64,000 bases of DNA from Clostridiales bacterium (GTDB lineage Bacteria; Bacillota; Clostridia; Oscillospirales; CAG-272). The translations under genes and the position numbers were made by a program. The DNA is taken from NCBI GenBank assembly GCA_021202555.1, contig JAJQCT010000029.1:66287-130286 (forward strand), written 5' to 3'. This document shows positions 41,199 through 47,447 of the stretch, one piece after another. The notes below the pieces were generated by a model. That model was not told the origin of the DNA and ran no database searches. It saw nothing but the letters and a program-made list of their open reading frames with translations. The first letter of the stretch is position 1. Each line of letters begins with the position of its first letter.

Positions 41199-41909
41199 AT
41201 GGTACTTGACAAAAAGGAAACAATCGTCGCATACCGCTGCCCTCACTGCGGCGCCGGAATAATGAGCATGGTGGGGGTATTCTCCCTGTCGGGAGATTTG
41301 CTGCGGCTCAAATGCGACTGCGGCGAAAGCGAGCTTACAATTCAATATATGCGCGACGGCAAAATCAAGCTTTACGTACCGTGCCTTTTCTGCCCGAATC
41401 CGCATACCTACACCGTCTCGGACAGCGTATTTTTCGGGCGCGAGCTTTTCACGCTCGGCTGCCCCTACACGGGGATTGACATCGTATTTGTCGGCGGACG
41501 CGGCGAGGTCGGGCTTGCGCTCACGAAATCCGAAAAGGAGCTGCTGGAGCTGCTCGGCGACGTGACGCTCGACGAAATTAACGAGGTCAAGGGCAAGCGT
41601 CACGCCGACAAGGGTCATGCTGACAAGGGTCAGATTCCATCTGACAAGGGTCAGCATCCCGCAGACAAGGGTCAGATTCCATCTGACCCCGAAATATTCG
41701 ATATAATAAATTTCGTCGTGCGCGACCTTGAAGAGGAAGGCAAAATTTCATGCCGCTGCGAGGACGGCTGCGGCGATTATCACGTCAATGTTGACGAGGA
41801 AACAGTGAAAATCACCTGCTCGGAGTGCGGCGCGTCGAAGGTGTTCCCCATCAACAGCACAACATCGGCGCTTTCGTTTCTCGAAACGGACTTTATCCGA
41901 TTGACGTAA
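41199..41909 (+). CDS. Hypothetical cysteine-rich protein with zinc-ribbon-like CxxC pairs
   Basis: CPHCG...CDCG, CLFCPNPH and a C-terminal CRCEDGCG...CSECG, with an internal ADKGH/ADKGQIPS/DKGQHPA repeat. ATG 41199 follows ACGGAG. The track ORF (41004) overlaps alr and is rejected. Confidence 0.5.
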   Translation: MVLDKKETIVAYRCPHCGAGIMSMVGVFSLSGDLLRLKCDCGESELTIQYMRDGKIKLYVPCLFCPNPHTYTVSDSVFFGRELFTLGCPYTGIDIVFVGGRGEVGLALTKSEKELLELLGDVTLDEINEVKGKRHADKGHADKGQIPSDKGQHPADKGQIPSDPEIFDIINFVVRDLEEEGKISCRCEDGCGDYHVNVDEETVKITCSECGASKVFPINSTTSALSFLETDFIRLT

Positions 41910-42010
41910 CAAACGGCGGAGTCTGACATATCATGATATTAAGCGTTCGCGGCGGCGGCACGGGGTGCCCTCCGCATTGCGACCGCATCCATAAAACGGA
42001 GGATCAAGAT

Positions 42011-42112
42011 ATGTCCAACTGCATAGGCGGAGCGTTTGAAGACAACAACCTTTGTTGGATTCTCATAATCGCGCTTGTTGTAATATTCTGCTGCTGCTCA
42101 GGCAACAACTGA
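42011..42112 (+). CDS. Candidate 33-aa cysteine-rich membrane microprotein
   Basis: Below the track size cutoff. GGAGGA 7 nt upstream of the ATG. Translation MSNCIGGAFEDNNLCWILIIALVVIFCCCSGNN. Followed 23 nt later by a strong terminator. Confidence 0.45.
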   Translation: MSNCIGGAFEDNNLCWILIIALVVIFCCCSGNN

Positions 42113-42135
42113 AGCGCATCAGCAAAACACTGATA

Positions 42136-42172
42136 TTCGGGTCGCCGGACGGCGACCCGAATTTGCGTTTTT
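42136..42172 (+). terminator. Rho-independent terminator
   Basis: TTCGGGTCGCC GGAC GGCGACCCGAA is a perfect 11-bp stem followed by TTTGCGTTTTT. Confidence 0.8.
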
Positions 42173-42224: not shown

Positions 42225-42253
42225 TTGACACAATAATAATGTTATGGTACAAT
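42225..42253 (+). promoter_or_regulatory. Sigma70-type promoter driving F1 copy E and the bactofilin cluster
   Basis: TTGACA - 17 nt - TACAAT, immediately followed by AACATTGAA. Confidence 0.6.
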
Positions 42254-42306
42254 AACATTGAAGAGCAAAGCACAGCCTTGTTATTCACGGTACAGCGCTT
42301 AGAATT
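42254..42306 (+). repeat. F1 module, copy E (minimal: AACATTGAA + one hairpin + ATTCACGG tail)
   Basis: AACATTGAA GAGCAAAGC ACA GCCTTGTT ATTCACGGTACAGCGCTTAGAATT. The tail matches copy D (ATTCACGGTTCAGCATTTAG). AACATTGAAG recurs at 42316-42325, abutting the SD. Confidence 0.65.
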
Positions 42307-42338
42307 AAGCAATAAAACATTGAAGAAGGAGAGAAGCG

Positions 42339-44126
42339 ATGTTTACGGATCAATTCAATCAAAACGGAAGCGGCGAGGAGCAGGATAATCCCCTGAAGGT
42401 GGATTCAATGCTTCACGCGGAGGACGACCTCGAGTGCGGCTCGCTTGATGTGTCGGGCACTTTTGAGCTGGACGGGGATCTTTCGTGCGCCGATATGAGC
42501 GTTTCGGGAGATGCGAAAATCAAAGGCGACATGGGATGCAGCACGCTTGGCGTGCCGGGAGAACTTTCGTGCGACGGAGACATTTCGTGCGCCGACTTTT
42601 CCGTTTCGGGTCACGCCTATGTTCGCGGGGACACAACTTGCGCGTCCTTTGATATGTCGGGAGAGTTTGACGCCGAGGGAGATTTCACATGCGTAAACGC
42701 AAAATTTACGGGTGCCGCCTCAATCGATGGGGACGTCACCTGCAATTCCCTTTATGTGAGCGAGCGCTTTTTAGGCAGTCAGGGTGATTTGTCGTGCAGC
42801 GTTTTGAATGTTTCAAAAAAAGGAAGCGCAAGCTTTAACGGTGACGCGAAATGTTCAGCTTTAGTTGTAGATGATGACGGTCATTTTTCCGCAGAAGGAG
42901 ACCTGACGTGCAAAGCCTCGGCGAAAATTTCGGGGAAAGCATATGTTACGGGAGACACCGAGTGCCAATCGCTCGACGTAAGCGGTAAATTTTCGGCAGC
43001 GGGAGACATCGAGTGCCGCGTGATGAACGTATCAGGCACACTTGAGACTGAGAGTGACATTGAATGCAAGGAAGCCTTCAAGGTCACGGATAACGGAAAA
43101 GTCAATGTAGGAGGCGACCTGCAGTGCGGATCAATTGACATATCCGACGGGGACGTCAATGTCGGAGGCGACGCTAAGTGCGACGATTTCAGCTCATCTG
43201 GAGCGGTCAATATCAAAGGCGACCTTTCATGTGACGACATTATCGCCAACGGAGAAATTACGGTAGGGTGCGACGTAAAAGCGGAGAAACTTTACGCAGA
43301 GAACGCGAAAATCGGAGGCTCACTTTATTTGGGAGAAGGCTTTTGCGTAGAGACAACGGCTAATATCAGCGGCGACGCGGAATGCGAATATCTCGCGTCG
43401 GACGGCACTGTATCGGTTGGAGGCTCGCTTTTATGCGGCACTCGATCCGCAGCTTCGGGCGGTTCCCCCTTCGCGCGCGAATCTATCACCTCATCCGGCA
43501 CAATCAACGTCGCAGAGAGCATCAAATGCGATGGCTATATAAGACACAACGGCACAATCACTGCCGGCGACAGTCTCGCGTGTGAATGCCTGATAGCGGA
43601 CGGAAATGTCAATGTAGGCGACAGCGTAAAATGTGACGGCGTCTTTCAGGCAAGCGGAACCGCGAATATCGGGGACTCGCTTTCCTGCGGATCTGTCAGC
43701 GTAAACGGAACCTTGCGCTGCGGGGATTCCGTTTCATGCGTCGGAGATATTACGGCTGACGGAAATGTCAGTGTCGGCGAAGATATTCACGCAAAAAGCG
43801 TTCATATCAAAGGCGAGGCGCTTATCGGAGGTCTTCTCGCCGCAAATATCGTGCGAATCGAAACGGAGCGCGGCGAGGTGCAAATCGAAAAGGTAACGGG
43901 CGACACCATAAGCATTGCGCCCTCGGACAATACGCCGCGAAAGGCTCCCACCGCAAAGGTGAATACAGTCGAGGGAGGCAGCGTAACGCTTGAATGCGTC
44001 CGCGCAGCGCTCGTCATCGGGGACACTGTCAGAGTTGGAGACGGATGTGAAATTGAAACTGTTCGGTGCAGCGGAACGCCCATAATTTCAGACGGGGCGA
44101 AGGTCGCGAACATCGAACGCGCATGA
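42339..44126 (+). CDS. Giant bactofilin-like beta-helical repeat protein with a cysteine in nearly every repeat
   Basis: 595 aa with roughly two dozen 17-20-residue repeats of the form GD-x-x-C-x4-(V/I)SG. The C-terminal 120 aa is collinear with the C-terminus of the short bactofilin at 44900. No signal peptide. Confidence 0.7.
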   Translation: MFTDQFNQNGSGEEQDNPLKVDSMLHAEDDLECGSLDVSGTFELDGDLSCADMSVSGDAKIKGDMGCSTLGVPGELSCDGDISCADFSVSGHAYVRGDTTCASFDMSGEFDAEGDFTCVNAKFTGAASIDGDVTCNSLYVSERFLGSQGDLSCSVLNVSKKGSASFNGDAKCSALVVDDDGHFSAEGDLTCKASAKISGKAYVTGDTECQSLDVSGKFSAAGDIECRVMNVSGTLETESDIECKEAFKVTDNGKVNVGGDLQCGSIDISDGDVNVGGDAKCDDFSSSGAVNIKGDLSCDDIIANGEITVGCDVKAEKLYAENAKIGGSLYLGEGFCVETTANISGDAECEYLASDGTVSVGGSLLCGTRSAASGGSPFARESITSSGTINVAESIKCDGYIRHNGTITAGDSLACECLIADGNVNVGDSVKCDGVFQASGTANIGDSLSCGSVSVNGTLRCGDSVSCVGDITADGNVSVGEDIHAKSVHIKGEALIGGLLAANIVRIETERGEVQIEKVTGDTISIAPSDNTPRKAPTAKVNTVEGGSVTLECVRAALVIGDTVRVGDGCEIETVRCSGTPIISDGAKVANIERA

Positions 44127-44145
44127 GGGAGAGTGATTACTGATA

Positions 44146-44907
44146 ATGGCAGAGAATAAAATCGCACTTTTTGACCCTGCGAGCGACCCATCGCTCATAT
44201 CAAAGCAGGACGTGCTTAAAATGTACAATATCTCCTACGGCACGCTTTACAGATGGAAGCGCATGGGACTGCTTCCGGGAGAATGGTTCATCAAAAAAAC
44301 GGTGTTTACGGGACAGGAAACCTTCCTTCCCCGCGAGCTTGTCATCGAAAGAATCAATCTCATCTTAAAGGAGCAGTCAAAGGGGAAATCGCTTGACGAA
44401 ATTTACGCCGCAATTACGAACGAAAGCGTCGAAAAAAAGGTTCTTATCGTCACAACAAAGCTCGGAAGCGCGCGATTTTTCACGGATGATATAATAAAAA
44501 TATCATTTGAGGCGGGAAATCAGACGGAGGATATCACAAACAGCGTTATCGCTCTCTTTGGAGACGATGCCATAAACGGACAAGCTGCCGTAAACGGACA
44601 AAATGCCGTAAACGGACAAAAAGAGGAGACGCCCGGTGCGGATGCGGAAAATAAAGCCGGCAGCGAAACGAAGGATGAGACGGCGGCGAAGGACGCGCCC
44701 ATGGCGGAGAGCGCGCCCGCGGCGGAGGAGACAGGCGCGGCGGAGGAAAAGCCCCGCGAGATGCCTCATATCAAGCCCGGCATAAGCGATTCGGAAACAG
44801 CGGACAAAATCATCGCCGCCGTTCTTGATTCGGTCGAGTATGAGCTTAGAAGTCTTGGAATAAACATAAACCTTTCGGACAGAGTAAGGAGGACTACAAA
44901 TGAGTAA
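44146..44907 (+). CDS. YhbD-like protein (DUF4004, MerR-like HTH) with acidic low-complexity C-terminal half
   Basis: ISYGTLYRWKRMGLLPGEWFIKKTVFTGQETFLPRELVIERINLI matches my recollection of B. subtilis YhbD, encoded next to the bactofilins YhbE/YhbF. Confidence 0.65.
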   Translation: MAENKIALFDPASDPSLISKQDVLKMYNISYGTLYRWKRMGLLPGEWFIKKTVFTGQETFLPRELVIERINLILKEQSKGKSLDEIYAAITNESVEKKVLIVTTKLGSARFFTDDIIKISFEAGNQTEDITNSVIALFGDDAINGQAAVNGQNAVNGQKEETPGADAENKAGSETKDETAAKDAPMAESAPAAEETGAAEEKPREMPHIKPGISDSETADKIIAAVLDSVEYELRSLGININLSDRVRRTTNE

Positions 44908-45574
44908 TGACATCAACAGCGCGGGATGCGGCATCTTCGGCGGCGGAAAATACGACAATGTAAGGATGAGCGGTTCGGGACAGATAGACGGAGACATTGA
45001 ATGCGCCTCGTTTTCGTCGAGCGGGTCGATGCGCTGCAACGGAAATCTCAGATGCCTTGGAATCGTAAAGGGCGCAGGCTCGTCGACCGTCACAAAGGAC
45101 ATCATTTGCGACGATACGGTTTCGTTTGCGGGATCGGCCACCGTCGGCGGCAGCATTAAATGCCGCGGGCTTTCCGCAGCGGGAAGCATTATTGTAAAGG
45201 GCGACGGAATTGAGGCGGAAACAGTGAAAATCGCGGGCGGCGCGACAATTTCGGGACTGCTCAACGCCGAGAGCGTGACGATACACCACCAAGGCGGCGT
45301 GACGATTGACAGCATAGGCGGCAGCGAGATAACAATTCTGTCGAAGAGCGAAAATCACGGCTTTTTCACCAAATCGAAGAAAAGTGCTAAGAAGCTCGTC
45401 GTCAAGGAATCCATCGAGGGCGACACAATCACGCTTGAGGGAGTTAAAGCGAAAACTGTCGTCGGCAGAATCGTCAAGGTTGATGAAAACTGCGAAATCG
45501 GGACGATTCGCTACACGGAATCGGCTGAAATTGCCGACGGCGCAAAGGTAGGAAGCGCCGAGATGTCGTCATAA
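44900..45574 (+). CDS. Bactofilin-family (polymer-forming cytoskeletal) protein, YhbE/YhbF-like
   Basis: 224 aa with repeats GDIECASFSSSGSMRCN / GNLRCLGIVKGAG / GSIKCRGLSAAGS. 8-nt overlap with the yhbD-like gene. Confidence 0.7.
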   Translation: MSNDINSAGCGIFGGGKYDNVRMSGSGQIDGDIECASFSSSGSMRCNGNLRCLGIVKGAGSSTVTKDIICDDTVSFAGSATVGGSIKCRGLSAAGSIIVKGDGIEAETVKIAGGATISGLLNAESVTIHHQGGVTIDSIGGSEITILSKSENHGFFTKSKKSAKKLVVKESIEGDTITLEGVKAKTVVGRIVKVDENCEIGTIRYTESAEIADGAKVGSAEMSS

Positions 45575-45593
45575 ACAGAAAAACTATCGGAAA

Positions 45594-45630
45594 ACGCCCT
45601 CTGCGGAATACCGCAGGGGGCGTTTCGTGA
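45594..45630. terminator. Bidirectional terminator between convergent genes
   Basis: ACGCCCTCTGCGG AATA CCGCAGGGGGCGT (13 bp, one mismatch), then TTCGTGATTTTTT. Confidence 0.65.
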
Positions 45631-45647: not shown

Positions 45648-46154
45648 TTATTCAATCACGTCATATCCGCAGCTCTCAATCTCGGAAATAGCTCTCTCGT
45701 CAATGTCGTCGACACTCCCATGCTCGAGAATTTCAAGCGTGTACACGCTCATCTGCCCGGGATAGGATTCCGCAATACTGCCGTCCGTTCCTACCTCCAC
45801 AAGGTCTCCCGTCGCAAGGTCGTCAAAGCTCGCATCCGCCGAACGCGAATGTATTGTGACGAGCTCACCGTAGTCGTAGTCGCCTTCAAAGATGAAAAAG
45901 TACGCCCCATCCGTTTTAACAATCCTTCCCTTCGACGCAACGTAAGCACCCGTCGAAACGACGGTCGTCGAATCGTCATCCGTCGATGCGTCGTCTGTGT
46001 CCGTCTCGCCTGTCGTGCCGCCCGTCGATGCGTCGGCGCCCTGCCAGTCGAGATCCTTGTCGCCCGCGTCGCTGCTGTCCATGCATGACACAGCGAAGAG
46101 GCAAAGCACTGCAATTGCAAGCATCAGCGCGGCTTTTTTGATTTTTCGTGTCAT
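45648..46154 (-). CDS. Hypothetical lipoprotein (last gene of the ECF sigma operon)
   Basis: MTRKIKKAALMLAIAVLCLFAVSC is a signal peptide with a lipobox. Confidence 0.5.
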   Translation of the reverse strand: MTRKIKKAALMLAIAVLCLFAVSCMDSSDAGDKDLDWQGADASTGGTTGETDTDDASTDDDSTTVVSTGAYVASKGRIVKTDGAYFFIFEGDYDYGELVTIHSRSADASFDDLATGDLVEVGTDGSIAESYPGQMSVYTLEILEHGSVDDIDERAISEIESCGYDVIE

Positions 46155-46179
46155 AATTCGTTCCTCCTTACTTGATTTT

Positions 46180-46896
46180 TTATTCCGCGGCTTCGTACTC
46201 GTCCGTTATCTCCAGCTCAAAACGTCCGAAGCCTTCATCGGGGCAGGTCACCCCGTCTATTACGGCAGGCTCGCCGTTTACGGTGAGAATTACGGAGGAC
46301 GACATCTGATAGTCAAGAAGCGTATTCACAACGCATTTCAGAATGTCGTCGTCAAGTCCCACACCCGTAAGCTCAACATTCCATATATAGGTCGCTTTCA
46401 CATACGAGTTGTCCTCATCGTCAGAGAATGTCTCCTCAACAAGCGTTCGCTCAGCCTTATCAACGGACATGGTGCACCCGTCAAGCTCGCCGAGAGTTAC
46501 TATACGGCAGAGAATCACCCCGACACCGACGTCAAGCGTATCATTGTAGGTATACGTATACGTCACATACCCGTCCGACGTCGGAACGTATATCACATAT
46601 TCCTGTACGATTGCGGTTTCACTCGACACAAATGTTTCGTATTCGCTTTCCCAGATTCCCCAGTTAATATCGACATCTCCCACGGCTTGCATCTCCCCGT
46701 CGCCGTCGTATCCCGGTTCAAAAAGACCTGTGAAAAGTGAGCCGCCGCCCACAAGAAGCGCGAGCAGAAGGCACGCCGCCGCAGCCGAAATCATACCGCT
46801 TCGTCTGTAAATCGGCACACGTCTCACCGCCGCAAATTCCGCCGCGTGAGCGTCCGATATGCCGCCAATCGCGTCAAAAATATCTTTATTTGTCAT
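46180..46896 (-). CDS. Putative anti-sigma / sigma-associated single-pass membrane protein
   Basis: 4-nt overlap with the upstream ECF sigma gene. Short cytoplasmic N-terminus, one TM segment (ISAAAACLLLALLVGGG) and an extracytoplasmic domain. Assignment rests on position only. Confidence 0.45.
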   Translation of the reverse strand: MTNKDIFDAIGGISDAHAAEFAAVRRVPIYRRSGMISAAAACLLLALLVGGGSLFTGLFEPGYDGDGEMQAVGDVDINWGIWESEYETFVSSETAIVQEYVIYVPTSDGYVTYTYTYNDTLDVGVGVILCRIVTLGELDGCTMSVDKAERTLVEETFSDDEDNSYVKATYIWNVELTGVGLDDDILKCVVNTLLDYQMSSSVILTVNGEPAVIDGVTCPDEGFGRFELEITDEYEAAE

Positions 46897-47447
46897 AAAG
46901 CCTCTCCTTTCCTTTCGAGAAATTTCTTAAGCCTTGAGCGTATTCTCGAAAGGCGCGTCCGGACAGCGCCCTCGCGAAGACCCGCAGCCTTTGATAAATC
47001 GGAGATTGAATCGAGATACCAGTACCTGCGCACAAAAATCATGCGGTCGGTCTTTCCGAGTGTGTCGATAAACGCGTCAATCGCGTGCGACAGCTCGCCT
47101 GATTCAAATTCGCTCTCCGTTCCGCCGGGGGACGGAACAGCTTCTTCAAGCTCGTCAAGACAGAGCGTATACTCACCGCGCTTTTCGGCGGTATTGTATC
47201 TTACGCGGTTTACGGATATATTGCGCACTATACCGTAAAGATACTGTGACATAGGCGACGGCTCCTTTGGCGGCACCGTGTTCCACACTGCGAGATACGC
47301 GTCATTGACGCATTCCTCCGCGTCTCTCTCGTCTCCGACGATATTTTTTGCAAGCTTGCTTGCCGCACGTCCGTATTTTTCCGAAAGCACCTCTATTGCG
47401 CGCTCGGAGCGTTCGAGGAAGAGCTTCAGTATTTCCGCGTCGTTCAT
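46893..47447 (-). CDS. RNA polymerase sigma factor, ECF (sigma70 group 4) family
   Basis: 184 aa. Region 2 has ECVNDAYLAVWN and region 4 HTH has ISDLSKAAGLREGAVRTRLSRIRSRLKKFL. Confidence 0.85.
   Translation of the reverse strand: MNDAEILKLFLERSERAIEVLSEKYGRAASKLAKNIVGDERDAEECVNDAYLAVWNTVPPKEPSPMSQYLYGIVRNISVNRVRYNTAEKRGEYTLCLDELEEAVPSPGGTESEFESGELSHAIDAFIDTLGKTDRMIFVRRYWYLDSISDLSKAAGLREGAVRTRLSRIRSRLKKFLERKGEAL

Follow-up and report, generated by a model that had tools for sequence, protein, structure and literature searches.

A bacR-linked operon encoding an elongated BacE/F-type bactofilin with a regular cysteine repeat in an uncultured gut Clostridia-type bacterium

Introduction

What is a protein of 595 residues whose cysteines recur mostly every 17-20 residues doing next to a bacR gene, and do these cysteines have a chemical task? 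A preliminary description of the locus had read it as a yhbD-linked cluster of BacE/F-type bactofilins headed by a giant beta-helix protein, whose cysteines would stack into a continuous ladder along one face and there serve metal, Fe-S or redox chemistry. Here, we follow up this description by profile searches, structure prediction and a survey of related loci.

Results

A bacR-bactofilin operon with an unusual gene order

Three co-directional genes lie on the + strand of the window (the whole 64,000-nucleotide stretch of DNA under analysis), preceded by a near-consensus promoter and followed by a strong terminator:

42135 to 42162, + strand: intrinsic terminator of an upstream tiny-peptide gene, delimiting the cluster on its 5' side; 12-pair stem (8 GC), then a T-run
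42225 to 42253, + strand: sigma-70-type promoter; TTGACA, 17-nt spacer, TACAAT, extended -10 TG
42238 to 42259, no strand assigned: candidate operator, a 22-bp near-palindrome (AATGTTATGGT/ACAATAACATT) over the -10 box; arms 91% complementary
42254 to 42338, + strand: 5' leader; ribosome binding site AAGGAG at 42326-42331, direct repeat AACATTGAAGA twice, at 42254 and 42316
42339 to 44126, + strand: gene read as an elongated BacE/F-type bactofilin, 595 aa, predicted ~31 windings (open reading frame, Pfam Bactofilin, AlphaFold2 solenoid)
44146 to 44907, + strand: bacR/yhbD-like gene, DUF4004, 253 aa, no cysteine; C-terminal half acidic and of low complexity
44567 to 44621, + strand: 18-nt tandem repeat within bacR, 3.1 copies (Tandem Repeats Finder), encoding AVNGQx in the disordered linker
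44900 to 45574, + strand: BacE/F-type bactofilin gene, 224 aa, ~13 windings; 8-nt overlap between its start and the bacR stop
45592 to 45625, + strand: intrinsic terminator that ends the three-gene unit; stem of 15 pairs (10 GC), then a T-run

All three reading frames were confirmed; Pfam, the locus survey and hhalign agree that the cluster is an operon of the bacR (yhbD, DUF4004)-bactofilin type. It belongs to an uncultured gut bacterium of Clostridia type. The 253-aa product matches Pfam DUF4004 (PF13171, E 1.2e-30) over residues 17-99 (44194-44442), its N-terminal HTH region, in which the segment ISKQDVLKMYNISYGTLYRWKR is similar to the HTH of B. subtilis BacR as given in PMC13649987. Among 84 other loci (L001-L084) from Clostridia, Bacilli, Methanobacterium and others, the DUF4004 gene adjoins a bactofilin gene in nearly all, the exceptions being L035 and L042, where the bactofilin sits at a contig end. 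In about 80 of them, DUF4004 comes first and is followed by one or two bactofilin genes of 220-270 aa. A long bactofilin upstream of DUF4004 was found in the window's clade only (595, 595, 444, 353 and at least 257 aa), while the other open reading frames matching the family profile in L001-L084 span 207-277 aa, apart from one of 158 aa in L040 and one of 388 aa in L059. The likeness to yhbD-yhbE-yhbF thus extends to the bacR linkage, but not to the order of genes, which is long bactofilin-bacR-bactofilin here. The two cysteine-rich reading frames noted earlier upstream of the cluster are real; yet a terminator separates them from it, and no link was found.

The promoter had been called a consensus promoter and indeed matches 11 of the 12 consensus positions; the orthologous loci L001, L003 and L005 keep both its -35 and its -10 box, and the terminator at 42135-42162 is likewise kept in orthologous loci. 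Of these three loci, the near-palindrome is conserved in L001 and 7/8 in L003, but not in L005. What had been listed as an "F1 leader" matched no Rfam family and is not conserved: its inter-repeat segment (~60 nt) is absent in L001, and L003 and L005 diverge.

The short bactofilin scores 27.3 bits against Pfam Bactofilin, just under the 27.9-bit cut-off, and 21 relatives of it were found. Its family profile matches the solved bactofilins BacA (2N3D, E 2e-4) and TtBac (6RIA, E 3e-3), and AlphaFold2 models it with pLDDT 91.3 and pTM 0.86.

The long protein carries a bactofilin signature and a predicted solenoid fold

The bactofilin model proposed earlier as a check (PF04519, DUF583) matches the 595-aa protein in five stretches with E 7.5e-26 and 90.7 bits (cut-off 27.9). 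AlphaFold2 predicts one continuous all-beta solenoid (pLDDT 91.7, pTM 0.78), which is consistent with the suggested beta-helix of one unit per turn, and the rung profile has six inward hydrophobic positions per ~17-residue unit. One part of the chain ties it to the BacE/F type:

43767 to 44123, + strand: C-terminal BacE/F-type windings with diverged GLLNAE, SIEGD and GxGCxI motifs

These motifs are invariant in the alignment of the 224-aa BacE/F-type family, and hhalign aligned aa 477-595 (119 aa) to that family's profile with a probability of 98.3%, E 2e-14 and 40% identity. With ~31 predicted windings, the long protein falls outside the ~13 windings (220-270 aa) of the BacE/F subgroup. We therefore regard it, as the best reading, as a lineage-specific elongated BacE/F-type paralogue whose unusual features are the length of its helix and its position upstream of bacR.

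As previously stated, neither bactofilin begins with a hydrophobic signal-like segment when the N-termini are read directly, and the long protein contains neither a signal peptide nor a transmembrane segment. The N-terminal membrane-targeting consensus of bactofilins is MFSKKKK, of which F2 and K4/K7 are critical in BacA (PMC12448750). The long protein starts with MFTDQFNQNGSGEEQD (MFTDQFNQ...), thus with M1 and F2 in place but with the first lysine at K20, so that the canonical motif is not matched because its lysines are missing; the short one starts MSNDINSAG, also without the motif. Targeting motifs of this type are common among bactofilins, not universal.

Twenty-five units share one cysteine

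Cysteine makes up 5.2% of the long protein (31 residues), compared with ~1.9% in the other long open reading frames of the window. Eighteen of the 30 Cys-to-Cys gaps measure 17-20 residues, where 8% would be expected at random (binomial tail 9e-13). The roughly two dozen units counted at first sight turned out to be 25, mostly of 17-20 residues, with the pattern G-D-h-x-C-x-x-h-x-h-x-G (h, hydrophobic). The cysteine is present in 25/25 and Asp occupies its position in 16/25; otherwise, the units share 22% amino acid and 38% nucleotide identity. The units are arranged as follows:

42423 to 43253, + strand: block 1 (aa 29-305), made up of 16 regular Cys rungs; ladder from C33 to C298, pLDDT 89-98
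43254 to 43514, + strand: irregular rungs and a loop (aa 306-392); A315 at the ladder position, Cys 311 and 336 out of register
43515 to 43790, + strand: block 2, five regular G-D-S-x-x-C rungs (aa 393-484); ladder Cys 397 to 467

The cysteines are in register, as proposed, but the ladder is not continuous, being broken at about residues 300-395 between the 16 and the five regular rungs. A low-confidence loop lies at residues 370-378 (pLDDT down to 51 in the block 371-380). The short paralogue has cysteines at the ladder position in four consecutive rungs (C35, C52, C70, C88), in agreement with the four turns described before.

A survey of orthologues, suggested as a further check, found the ladder cysteines conserved in all of them, including the 55% identical protein of L005, which keeps every one. 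The L001 orthologue lacks exactly 453 nt (151 aa), in frame and in register; the missing piece covers most of aa 282-432, and its breakpoint falls on a Cys codon, in a GACG microhomology. Against orthologues, dN/dS of the long gene is 0.27-0.35 (0.27 in the helix). Every known copy of the long protein stems from metagenome assemblies.

The ladder position probably points into the core

Relative to the ladder cysteine (0), hydrophobic residues occupy positions -6, -2, 0, +3, +5, +9 and +11. The rung motif superimposes on BacA numbering and places V70, A87, S102 and H119 at the ladder position, with A87, S102 and H119 directly preceding E88, K103 and E120. In the solid-state NMR structure of BacA, E88, K103 and E120 are stacked externally, and the core contains L122 and M124 (PMC4672760). 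The latter two correspond to +3 and +5 relative to the ladder position. Across 523 rungs of BacE/F-type relatives, the ladder position is Ala in 33%, Cys in 26%, Gly in 17% and Val, Ser or Thr in 18%, with charged residues at ~0.4%. Rather than running along a face, the column hence coincides, by rung profile, BacA alignment and the BacA structure (PMC4672760), with an inward position for small residues.

Cysteine at this position is a habit of the family, which, by the criterion set in the preliminary description, removes part of the novelty. A first-rung Cys occurs in 99 of 102 relatives and a second-rung Cys in 65 of 91 from outside the Bacilli, but in none of the 11 Bacilli proteins (from Heyndrickxia, Parageobacillus, Paenibacillus, Fictibacillus and others, taken as proxies for B. 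subtilis); in later rungs, Cys is frequent in Clostridia and rare in Bacilli. What remains exceptional is full occupancy over 25 rungs: uninterrupted chains of 16-17 rungs were seen in the window's clade only, the next best value being 7 and the typical one 1-2. On these grounds, the ladder is an extreme form of the family habit and probably a buried packing element, burial being deduced from periodicity and BacA homology.

Discussion

Does the ladder do chemistry? It might bind metal or Fe-S at a chain of sites, or act as an oxidation-sensitive switch of rod stability or polymerisation; as a switch, it could link contact with oxygen to BacR release by way of cooperative oxidation or of disulfides between rungs. 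In-register residues on adjacent parallel strands lie ~4.8 Å apart, and neighbouring thiols could in principle react. Such a role would fit the invariance of the cysteine in units that otherwise have little in common, which exceeds even that of the corner Gly/Asp, its retention in orthologues, the clade-restricted long chains and the cytoplasmic location of a protein without a signal peptide. We nevertheless consider it unlikely, since the position is inward both in solved BacA and by the hydrophobic periodicity of the rungs (PMC4672760), and the triangular core of bactofilins is tightly packed, without a cavity for ions (PMC4672760). Besides, in place of the clusters of three or four accessible thiolates expected of such sites, there is a single thiol per rung, with no CxxC and no His partners, and searches of Pfam and NCBIfam matched no metal or Fe-S family. 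An inward site that relatives freely fill with Ala, Cys, Gly, Val, Ser or Thr, and hardly ever with polar or charged residues, speaks for core packing and not for metal, Fe-S or redox chemistry, so the chemistry postulated in the preliminary description is not supported. On the other hand, packing by itself does not obviously explain 25/25 cysteines at a position that tolerates Ala and Gly in the family, and a thiol-specific property may be under selection in the long paralogue. Less likely still is that the 25-thiol stack is selected for its chemistry, as a "fuse" in the core that makes a strict anaerobe's 15-nm cytoskeletal rod sensitive to oxygen or redox state; the rod would unfold or become cross-linked upon cooperative oxidation and free BacR, and polymorphism in rung number would tune it as a molecular ruler.

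It is highly improbable that the long protein resembles bactofilins in its repeat only and is in truth an adhesin or surface protein with a generic beta-helix. Its best Foldseek matches in the PDB are surface beta-helices (tapirin, RsaA, TPS domains), the best remote match of the exhaustive search, P0023 (601 aa), has hydrophobic N- and C-terminal stretches, and NCBIfam gave a weak choice-of-anchor A match of 26.2 bits, below the 29-bit cut-off. The Foldseek matches to the PDB, however, are generic beta-helices alone with non-significant E-values (> 0.02), bactofilin entries not being retrieved by this search, whereas the Pfam Bactofilin score is far above cut-off. Moreover, the chain has no signal peptide or transmembrane segment, its C-terminal windings share homology with those of the cytoplasmic BacE/F type, and it shares a transcription unit with a cytoplasmic regulator and the short bactofilin.

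That length and ladder are functionless by-products of recent repeat amplification, mis-assembly or pseudogene decay may come to mind given the 353-, 444- and 595-aa versions among close relatives, the metagenomic origin of all copies and the proneness of repeats to mis-assembly, but it is scarcely credible: the units are 38% identical at the nucleotide level (maximum 65%) and Tandem Repeats Finder detected no rung-period array in the gene, its sole repeat being a two-copy 27-nt one at 43851-43903, which renders recent amplification and repeat collapse unlikely; two Logan contigs, of which one was read from run SRR15221328, carry an identical 595-aa protein, and a collinear 595-aa orthologue is 90% identical; and the uninterrupted reading frame has a good ribosome binding site and promoter, with the helix dN/dS of 0.27 given above.

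We thus favour an elongated BacE/F paralogue upstream of bacR that has a buried structural cysteine stack, co-assembles with its short neighbour and takes part in feedback through BacR, an explanation to which, as a whole, we assign a probability of about 0.65. The beta-helix would have grown from the usual ~13 windings to ~31 (bactofilins elsewhere range from 6 to 13) by old, in-register duplications of single rungs, giving a rod of roughly 15 nm at 4.8 Å per winding, and whole-rung recombination may still be altering its length, as the three length versions suggest. Each rung would place its cysteine at the inward small-residue position beside a corner of the triangular core, so that 25 thiols would form a buried stack. 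Much like the Asn/Cys ladders known from other solenoid proteins, this stack could improve the packing and stability of a solenoid of such unusual length; in a strict anaerobe it would be affordable, as the thiols would remain in the reduced form. If B. subtilis is a guide, the long and the short paralogue probably co-assemble via their homologous C-terminal windings, and the long one probably binds the BacR regulator, which would place the operon under feedback control from the promoter at 42225-42253.

The closest known system is the yhbDEF (bacR-bacE-bacF) operon of B. subtilis, which shares with ours the C-terminal windings (hhalign 98.3%), the tight DUF4004 HTH linkage (PMC13649987) and two bactofilin paralogues per operon; BacR-bactofilin binding and operon regulation have been shown in B. 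subtilis and Geobacillus (PMC13649987). The role of BacE/F itself is disputed, motility defects in B. subtilis being reported as strain-dependent (PMC9103452). The rung-1 Cys and the GxGCxI Cys are common to the long protein and the BacE/F type, including all 11 Bacilli proteins. In contrast to BacE/BacF, with the 13 windings of the BacEF group (PMC11459167), the long protein has a predicted ~31, its gene lies upstream and not downstream of bacR, cysteine occupies 25 rungs and not essentially one, and the accompanying BacR bears a long acidic repeat linker. Caulobacter BacA (2N3D) and Thermus TtBac (6RIA) likewise have ~17-residue rungs, corner Gly/Asp and six inward hydrophobic positions; yet canonical bactofilins comprise six windings, with disordered tails and MFSKKKK-type targeting (PMC12448750), and BacA carries no Cys at the ladder position. 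The archaeal halofilin HalA also lengthens the bactofilin fold within one polypeptide (PMC11459167), but joins two six-winding domains head-to-head via an alpha-helical hairpin, whereas the long protein appears to be a single uninterrupted helix extended rung by rung.

The relative P0087 (586 aa), a tandem fusion of two BacE/F modules, differs from the long protein as well. Leucine-rich-repeat solenoids, for example ribonuclease inhibitor, have Asn/Cys ladders to which each repeat similarly contributes a conserved buried residue, polar or small, in a stack along the solenoid. Many reduced cytosolic cysteines of ribonuclease inhibitor are structural, and oxidation destabilises the protein. Its alpha/beta horseshoe is unrelated to a triangular beta-helix, and the likeness is one of analogy, not homology.

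In summary, neither the fold nor this type of operon, in which bacR is combined with bactofilins, was new, and nothing is overturned. Bactofilins, though, have mostly been portrayed as small bricks of six windings, for which polymerisation is the sole way to gain length, while here some 31 windings appear to reside in one chain. The 353-, 444- and 595-aa variants form a natural length series with which to relate subunit length to filament mechanics, membrane binding and BacR sequestration. Similarly, the fully occupied and presumably buried cysteine column would be a clean test case for the contribution of stacked thiols to beta-solenoid stability, and the tendency of Clostridial members to carry Cys at this core position, where Bacilli members mostly do not, is a trend worth wider checking.

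Gene cluster and family assignment

The three co-directional reading frames named in the preliminary description were confirmed in the window sequence, and their surroundings can be laid out as follows.

Features of the bactofilin cluster (window coordinates)
42135-42162: strong terminator 5' of the cluster, preceding the promoter; it is the terminator of an upstream tiny-peptide gene
42225-42253: near-consensus sigma-70 promoter (TTGACA, 17-nt spacer, TACAAT, upstream TG; 11/12 consensus positions)
42238-42259: 22-bp near-palindrome AATGTTATGGT/ACAATAACATT, overlapping the -10 box
42339-44126 (+): long bactofilin gene, ORF of 595 aa
44146-44907 (+): bacR (DUF4004) gene, ORF of 253 aa
44900-45574 (+): short bactofilin gene, ORF of 224 aa
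45592-45625: terminator 3' of the short bactofilin gene

Because they share one direction, a promoter and flanking terminators, the three genes look like a single transcription unit, whose co-transcription we infer. The short bactofilin gene starts 8 nt inside the end of bacR, and a ribosome binding site (AAGGAG) lies 7 nt upstream of the ATG of the long gene.

The long protein matched the Pfam Bactofilin model (PF04519; E 7.5e-26, 90.7 bits, five stretches), while its short neighbour scored 27.3 bits, just under the 27.9-bit cut-off, and BacR matched DUF4004 over its N-terminal HTH half (E 1.2e-30). A profile built from the short bactofilin and 20 relatives (alignment A2) matched the solved bactofilins BacA (2N3D, E 2e-4) and TtBac (6RIA, E 3e-3), and the last 119 residues of the long protein aligned to its C-terminal part with 98.3% probability and 40% identity. 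Given this alignment and the Pfam match, the long protein can be assigned as a paralogue of the short one with a much longer helix. Searching PDB sequences by phmmer with the long protein gave no match; BacA and TtBac were reached only by the family profile. The BacE/BacF group of B. subtilis forms a separate bactofilin cluster, present in Methanobacterium too, whose members have 13 windings (PMC11459167), against about 31 in the long protein. In the same species BacR, formerly YhbD, binds BacE/F and controls the yhbDEF operon (PMC13649987).

AlphaFold2, run on an alignment of both paralogues and 22 relatives, modelled the long protein as one all-beta solenoid that runs without a break from about residue 19 to 594 (pLDDT 91.7, pTM 0.78); the short one reached pLDDT 91.3 and pTM 0.86. 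At about 17.5 residues per winding, the model would comprise about 31 windings and, at 4.8 Å each, a rod of roughly 15 nm. Foldseek searches of both models against the PDB returned generic, non-significant beta-helix matches only.

Upstream of the cluster, the promoter boxes are kept in orthologues and the leader is not. A perfect 11-nt direct repeat, AACATTGAAGA, occurs twice within 42254-42326 and brackets a ~60-nt leader segment. These ~60 nt are missing in L001, one of the fetched loci, as if the flanking repeats had mediated an indel in the 5' UTR; in L003 and L005 the leader has diverged. Since Rfam gave no match across the entire window and the leader is poorly kept among orthologues, the 'F1 leader' described earlier could not be upheld as a conserved element, and a conserved leader RNA was rejected. 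The near-palindrome, only partly kept and in the closest relatives alone, is a possible operator for BacR as a MerR-like HTH protein.

The bacR gene itself carries an 18-nt tandem repeat (44567-44621, +; 3.1 copies, 89% matches in TRF) encoding AVNGQx within a long acidic low-complexity linker. The window BacR has 253 aa; the L004 and L005 versions are shorter (~204 aa), and many Clostridia MAGs encode one of only 123-148 aa.

Cysteine register of the long bactofilin

Cysteine makes up 5.2% of the long protein (31 residues), compared with ~1.9% across the window's other long ORFs, and 18 of the 30 Cys-to-Cys gaps measure 17-20 residues, where 8% would be expected at random (binomial tail 9e-13). 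We delineated 25 Cys-anchored units of the form G-D-h-x-C-x-x-h-x-h-x-G-x-h-x-h (h, hydrophobic); Cys is present in every one, the corner Gly or Asp being less conserved. The units share on average 22% amino-acid and 38% nucleotide identity, and TRF detected no rung-period tandem array in the gene; its only find was a 27-nt repeat, in two copies, close to the 3' end. The rung duplications therefore appear to be old, and recent tandem amplification was rejected. The ladder is not perfectly continuous.

Rung organisation of the long bactofilin
C33 to C298: 16 regular rungs
~residues 300-395: irregular stretch in which one rung has Ala (A315) at the ladder position, two Cys fall out of register and a loop has low confidence
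C397 to C467: five further regular rungs
After the rungs ending at C467: BacE/F-type C-terminal windings

The short paralogue indeed repeats this Cys placement in four turns (C35, C52, C70 and C88). Searches of the literature on bactofilins and cysteine turned up no account of a Cys ladder; 'cysteine' in the BacE/F paper refers to engineered flagellin labels.

Orientation of the ladder

The preliminary description had the cysteines line one face of the helix and suggested metal or Fe-S coordination or redox-controlled polymerisation. Three lines agree, however, that they would point inward. First, hydrophobic positions in the rung profile of the long protein, counted from the Cys, are -6, -2, 0 (the Cys itself), +3, +5, +9 and +11, with polar residues between, and the Cys shares strand and face with position -2, which is 88% hydrophobic. 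Second, in the A2 profile alignment, which after renumbering of BacA agrees with all residue identities given in the solid-state NMR study (PMC4672760), the ladder position corresponds to V70, A87, S102 and H119 of BacA, a set including the residues immediately before E88, K103 and E120. The latter form a charge stack on the outside, whereas L122 and M124 (+3 and +5) belong to the core and A123 (+4) faces outward (PMC4672760); by strand alternation relative to these residues, position 0 would face the core. Third, across 523 rungs from 170 relatives the ladder position is occupied by Ala (33%), Cys (26%), Gly (17%) and Val, Ser or Thr (18%), charged residues making up ~0.4%. We infer that the cysteines form a buried column beside a corner of the triangular core rather than a ladder on a face.

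Such a column fits a packing role and is a poor fit to metal, Fe-S or surface redox chemistry. The 25/25 occupancy, which suggests specific selection for Cys in this protein, might speak for a chemically functional ladder, but each rung contributes one thiol, CxxC and His partners are absent, and no metal-binding family in Pfam or NCBIfam matched the cluster proteins; together with the inward orientation, this makes chemical function quite unlikely. Packing or stability of the core is the only explanation that we can offer for the selection.

Relatives and evolution

In almost all of the 84 fetched loci annotated by ORF and HMM calls (L001-L084), DUF4004 comes first and a single bactofilin gene, or a pair, of 220-270 aa comes next. 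A long bactofilin upstream of DUF4004 occurs, among these loci and the window, only in the window (595 aa), L001 (444 aa), L003 (595 aa), L004 (at least 257 aa, at a contig end) and L005 (353 aa). These orthologues were found via the neighbouring short gene and a GTDB genome scan; a word-indexed homologue search with the long protein had yielded one weak match and missed existing orthologues, which were recovered via the short gene. An exhaustive phmmer search of 1.84 billion proteins returned 1035 relatives, none with E < 1e-30 or above 27% identity over the helix, the clade's own cluster evidently being absent from that library, and two scans of JGI metagenome contigs (with the long protein alone and with the orthologue alignment) added no further orthologues. 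The long form is rare.

The gene is genuine and under constraint, because dN/dS is low (0.35 against L003, 0.27 in the helix part; 0.30 against L005) and the identical 595-aa protein lies on two Logan contigs, one from run SRR15221328, so that an assembly artefact was rejected. The window and L001 orthologues are 91% identical yet differ in rung number: the L001 gene (5899-7233) has an exact, in-frame and in-register 453-nt deletion relative to window 43182-43634, removing ~8.5 rungs; the junction is a GACG microhomology that falls on the codon of a ladder Cys. The L005 protein lacks roughly the distal 11 rungs. Besides, L004 (1351-2184) and L005 (3455-4288) encode a middle bactofilin (227 aa from its likely start) between bacR and a 223-aa gene; as far as these loci indicate, it was lost in the window lineage, of which they represent the nearest sister lineage.

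Further relatives with an unusual build are P0079 (472 aa; a long charged N-terminal segment, coiled-coil-like by eye, ahead of a bactofilin whose rungs mostly have Cys), P0087 (586 aa; two BacE/F modules fused in tandem), P0023 (601 aa; by eye, signal-peptide-like N-terminal and membrane-anchor-like C-terminal hydrophobic stretches) and a Verrucomicrobiota BacE/F-like protein (L059 7884-9050; 388 aa) whose C-terminal segment is hydrophobic.

The neighbourhood holds further conserved genes. Between alr and the cluster, 41199-41909 (+) encodes a 236-aa protein whose ends both carry CxxC/CxC pairs and whose middle is an ADKG(H/Q) low-complexity repeat; Pfam gives weak zinc-ribbon matches only. 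The protein is kept at the same position in L001 (222 aa) and L003 (215 aa), and its gene is cut off from the bactofilin operon by a terminator. It is followed by a tiny hydrophobic peptide with a CCC motif, MSNCIGGAFEDNNLCWILIIALVVIFCCCSGNN (42012-42112, +, within ORF 41933-42112; own terminator 42135-42162), which matches no Pfam or NCBIfam family and whose C-terminal part is also kept in L001 and L005, 5' of the cluster. Downstream, a divergently oriented set (45648-47447, -), kept beside the cluster in L001, L002 and L004, comprises an ECF sigma factor (TIGR02937, E 1e-18), a 238-aa protein in anti-sigma-factor position with a by-eye transmembrane-like N-terminal stretch, and a 168-aa probable lipoprotein (weak DUF3221 match in an orthologue).

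Discussion

The cysteine repeat noted in the preliminary description is confirmed, and its interpretation is supported in part. We propose that the long protein, which lacks the lysines of the canonical membrane-targeting motif, would be a cytoplasmic, elongated BacE/F-type scaffold whose long core is stabilised by the Cys column and whose rung number would evolve through unequal in-register recombination. By analogy with BacE and BacF, which co-assemble in a heterologous system (PMC4627819), it probably pairs with the short bactofilin via their homologous C-terminal windings, and it probably binds BacR too, giving feedback as in B. subtilis (PMC13649987). Flagellar assembly, envelope stress and other processes are all possible settings.

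How distinctive the cysteines are depends on the rung. The fetched loci supply 102 BacE/F-type proteins of normal size (91 non-Bacilli, 11 Bacilli). Among them, rung 1 (C35 of the short protein) is Cys in 99, so this part of the pattern is typical of the family, and the C-terminal GxGCxI Cys (C198) is present in 100; both columns of A2 are nearly invariant family-wide, aerobic Bacilli included, the other ladder positions being variable. At rung 2 the Cys counts are 65/91 in non-Bacilli and 0/11 in Bacilli; at rung 4 they are 38/91 and 1/11. Unbroken Cys chains at rung spacing reach 1-2 in most relatives, 4-5 in a few and 7 in the unrelated P0079; long chains are restricted to the window clade (9 in the truncated L004 copy, 13-17 in the others). 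On this sequence survey, the ladder is an extreme form of a tendency strongest among Clostridial members of the family, which is consistent with anaerobes using Cys as a small core residue.
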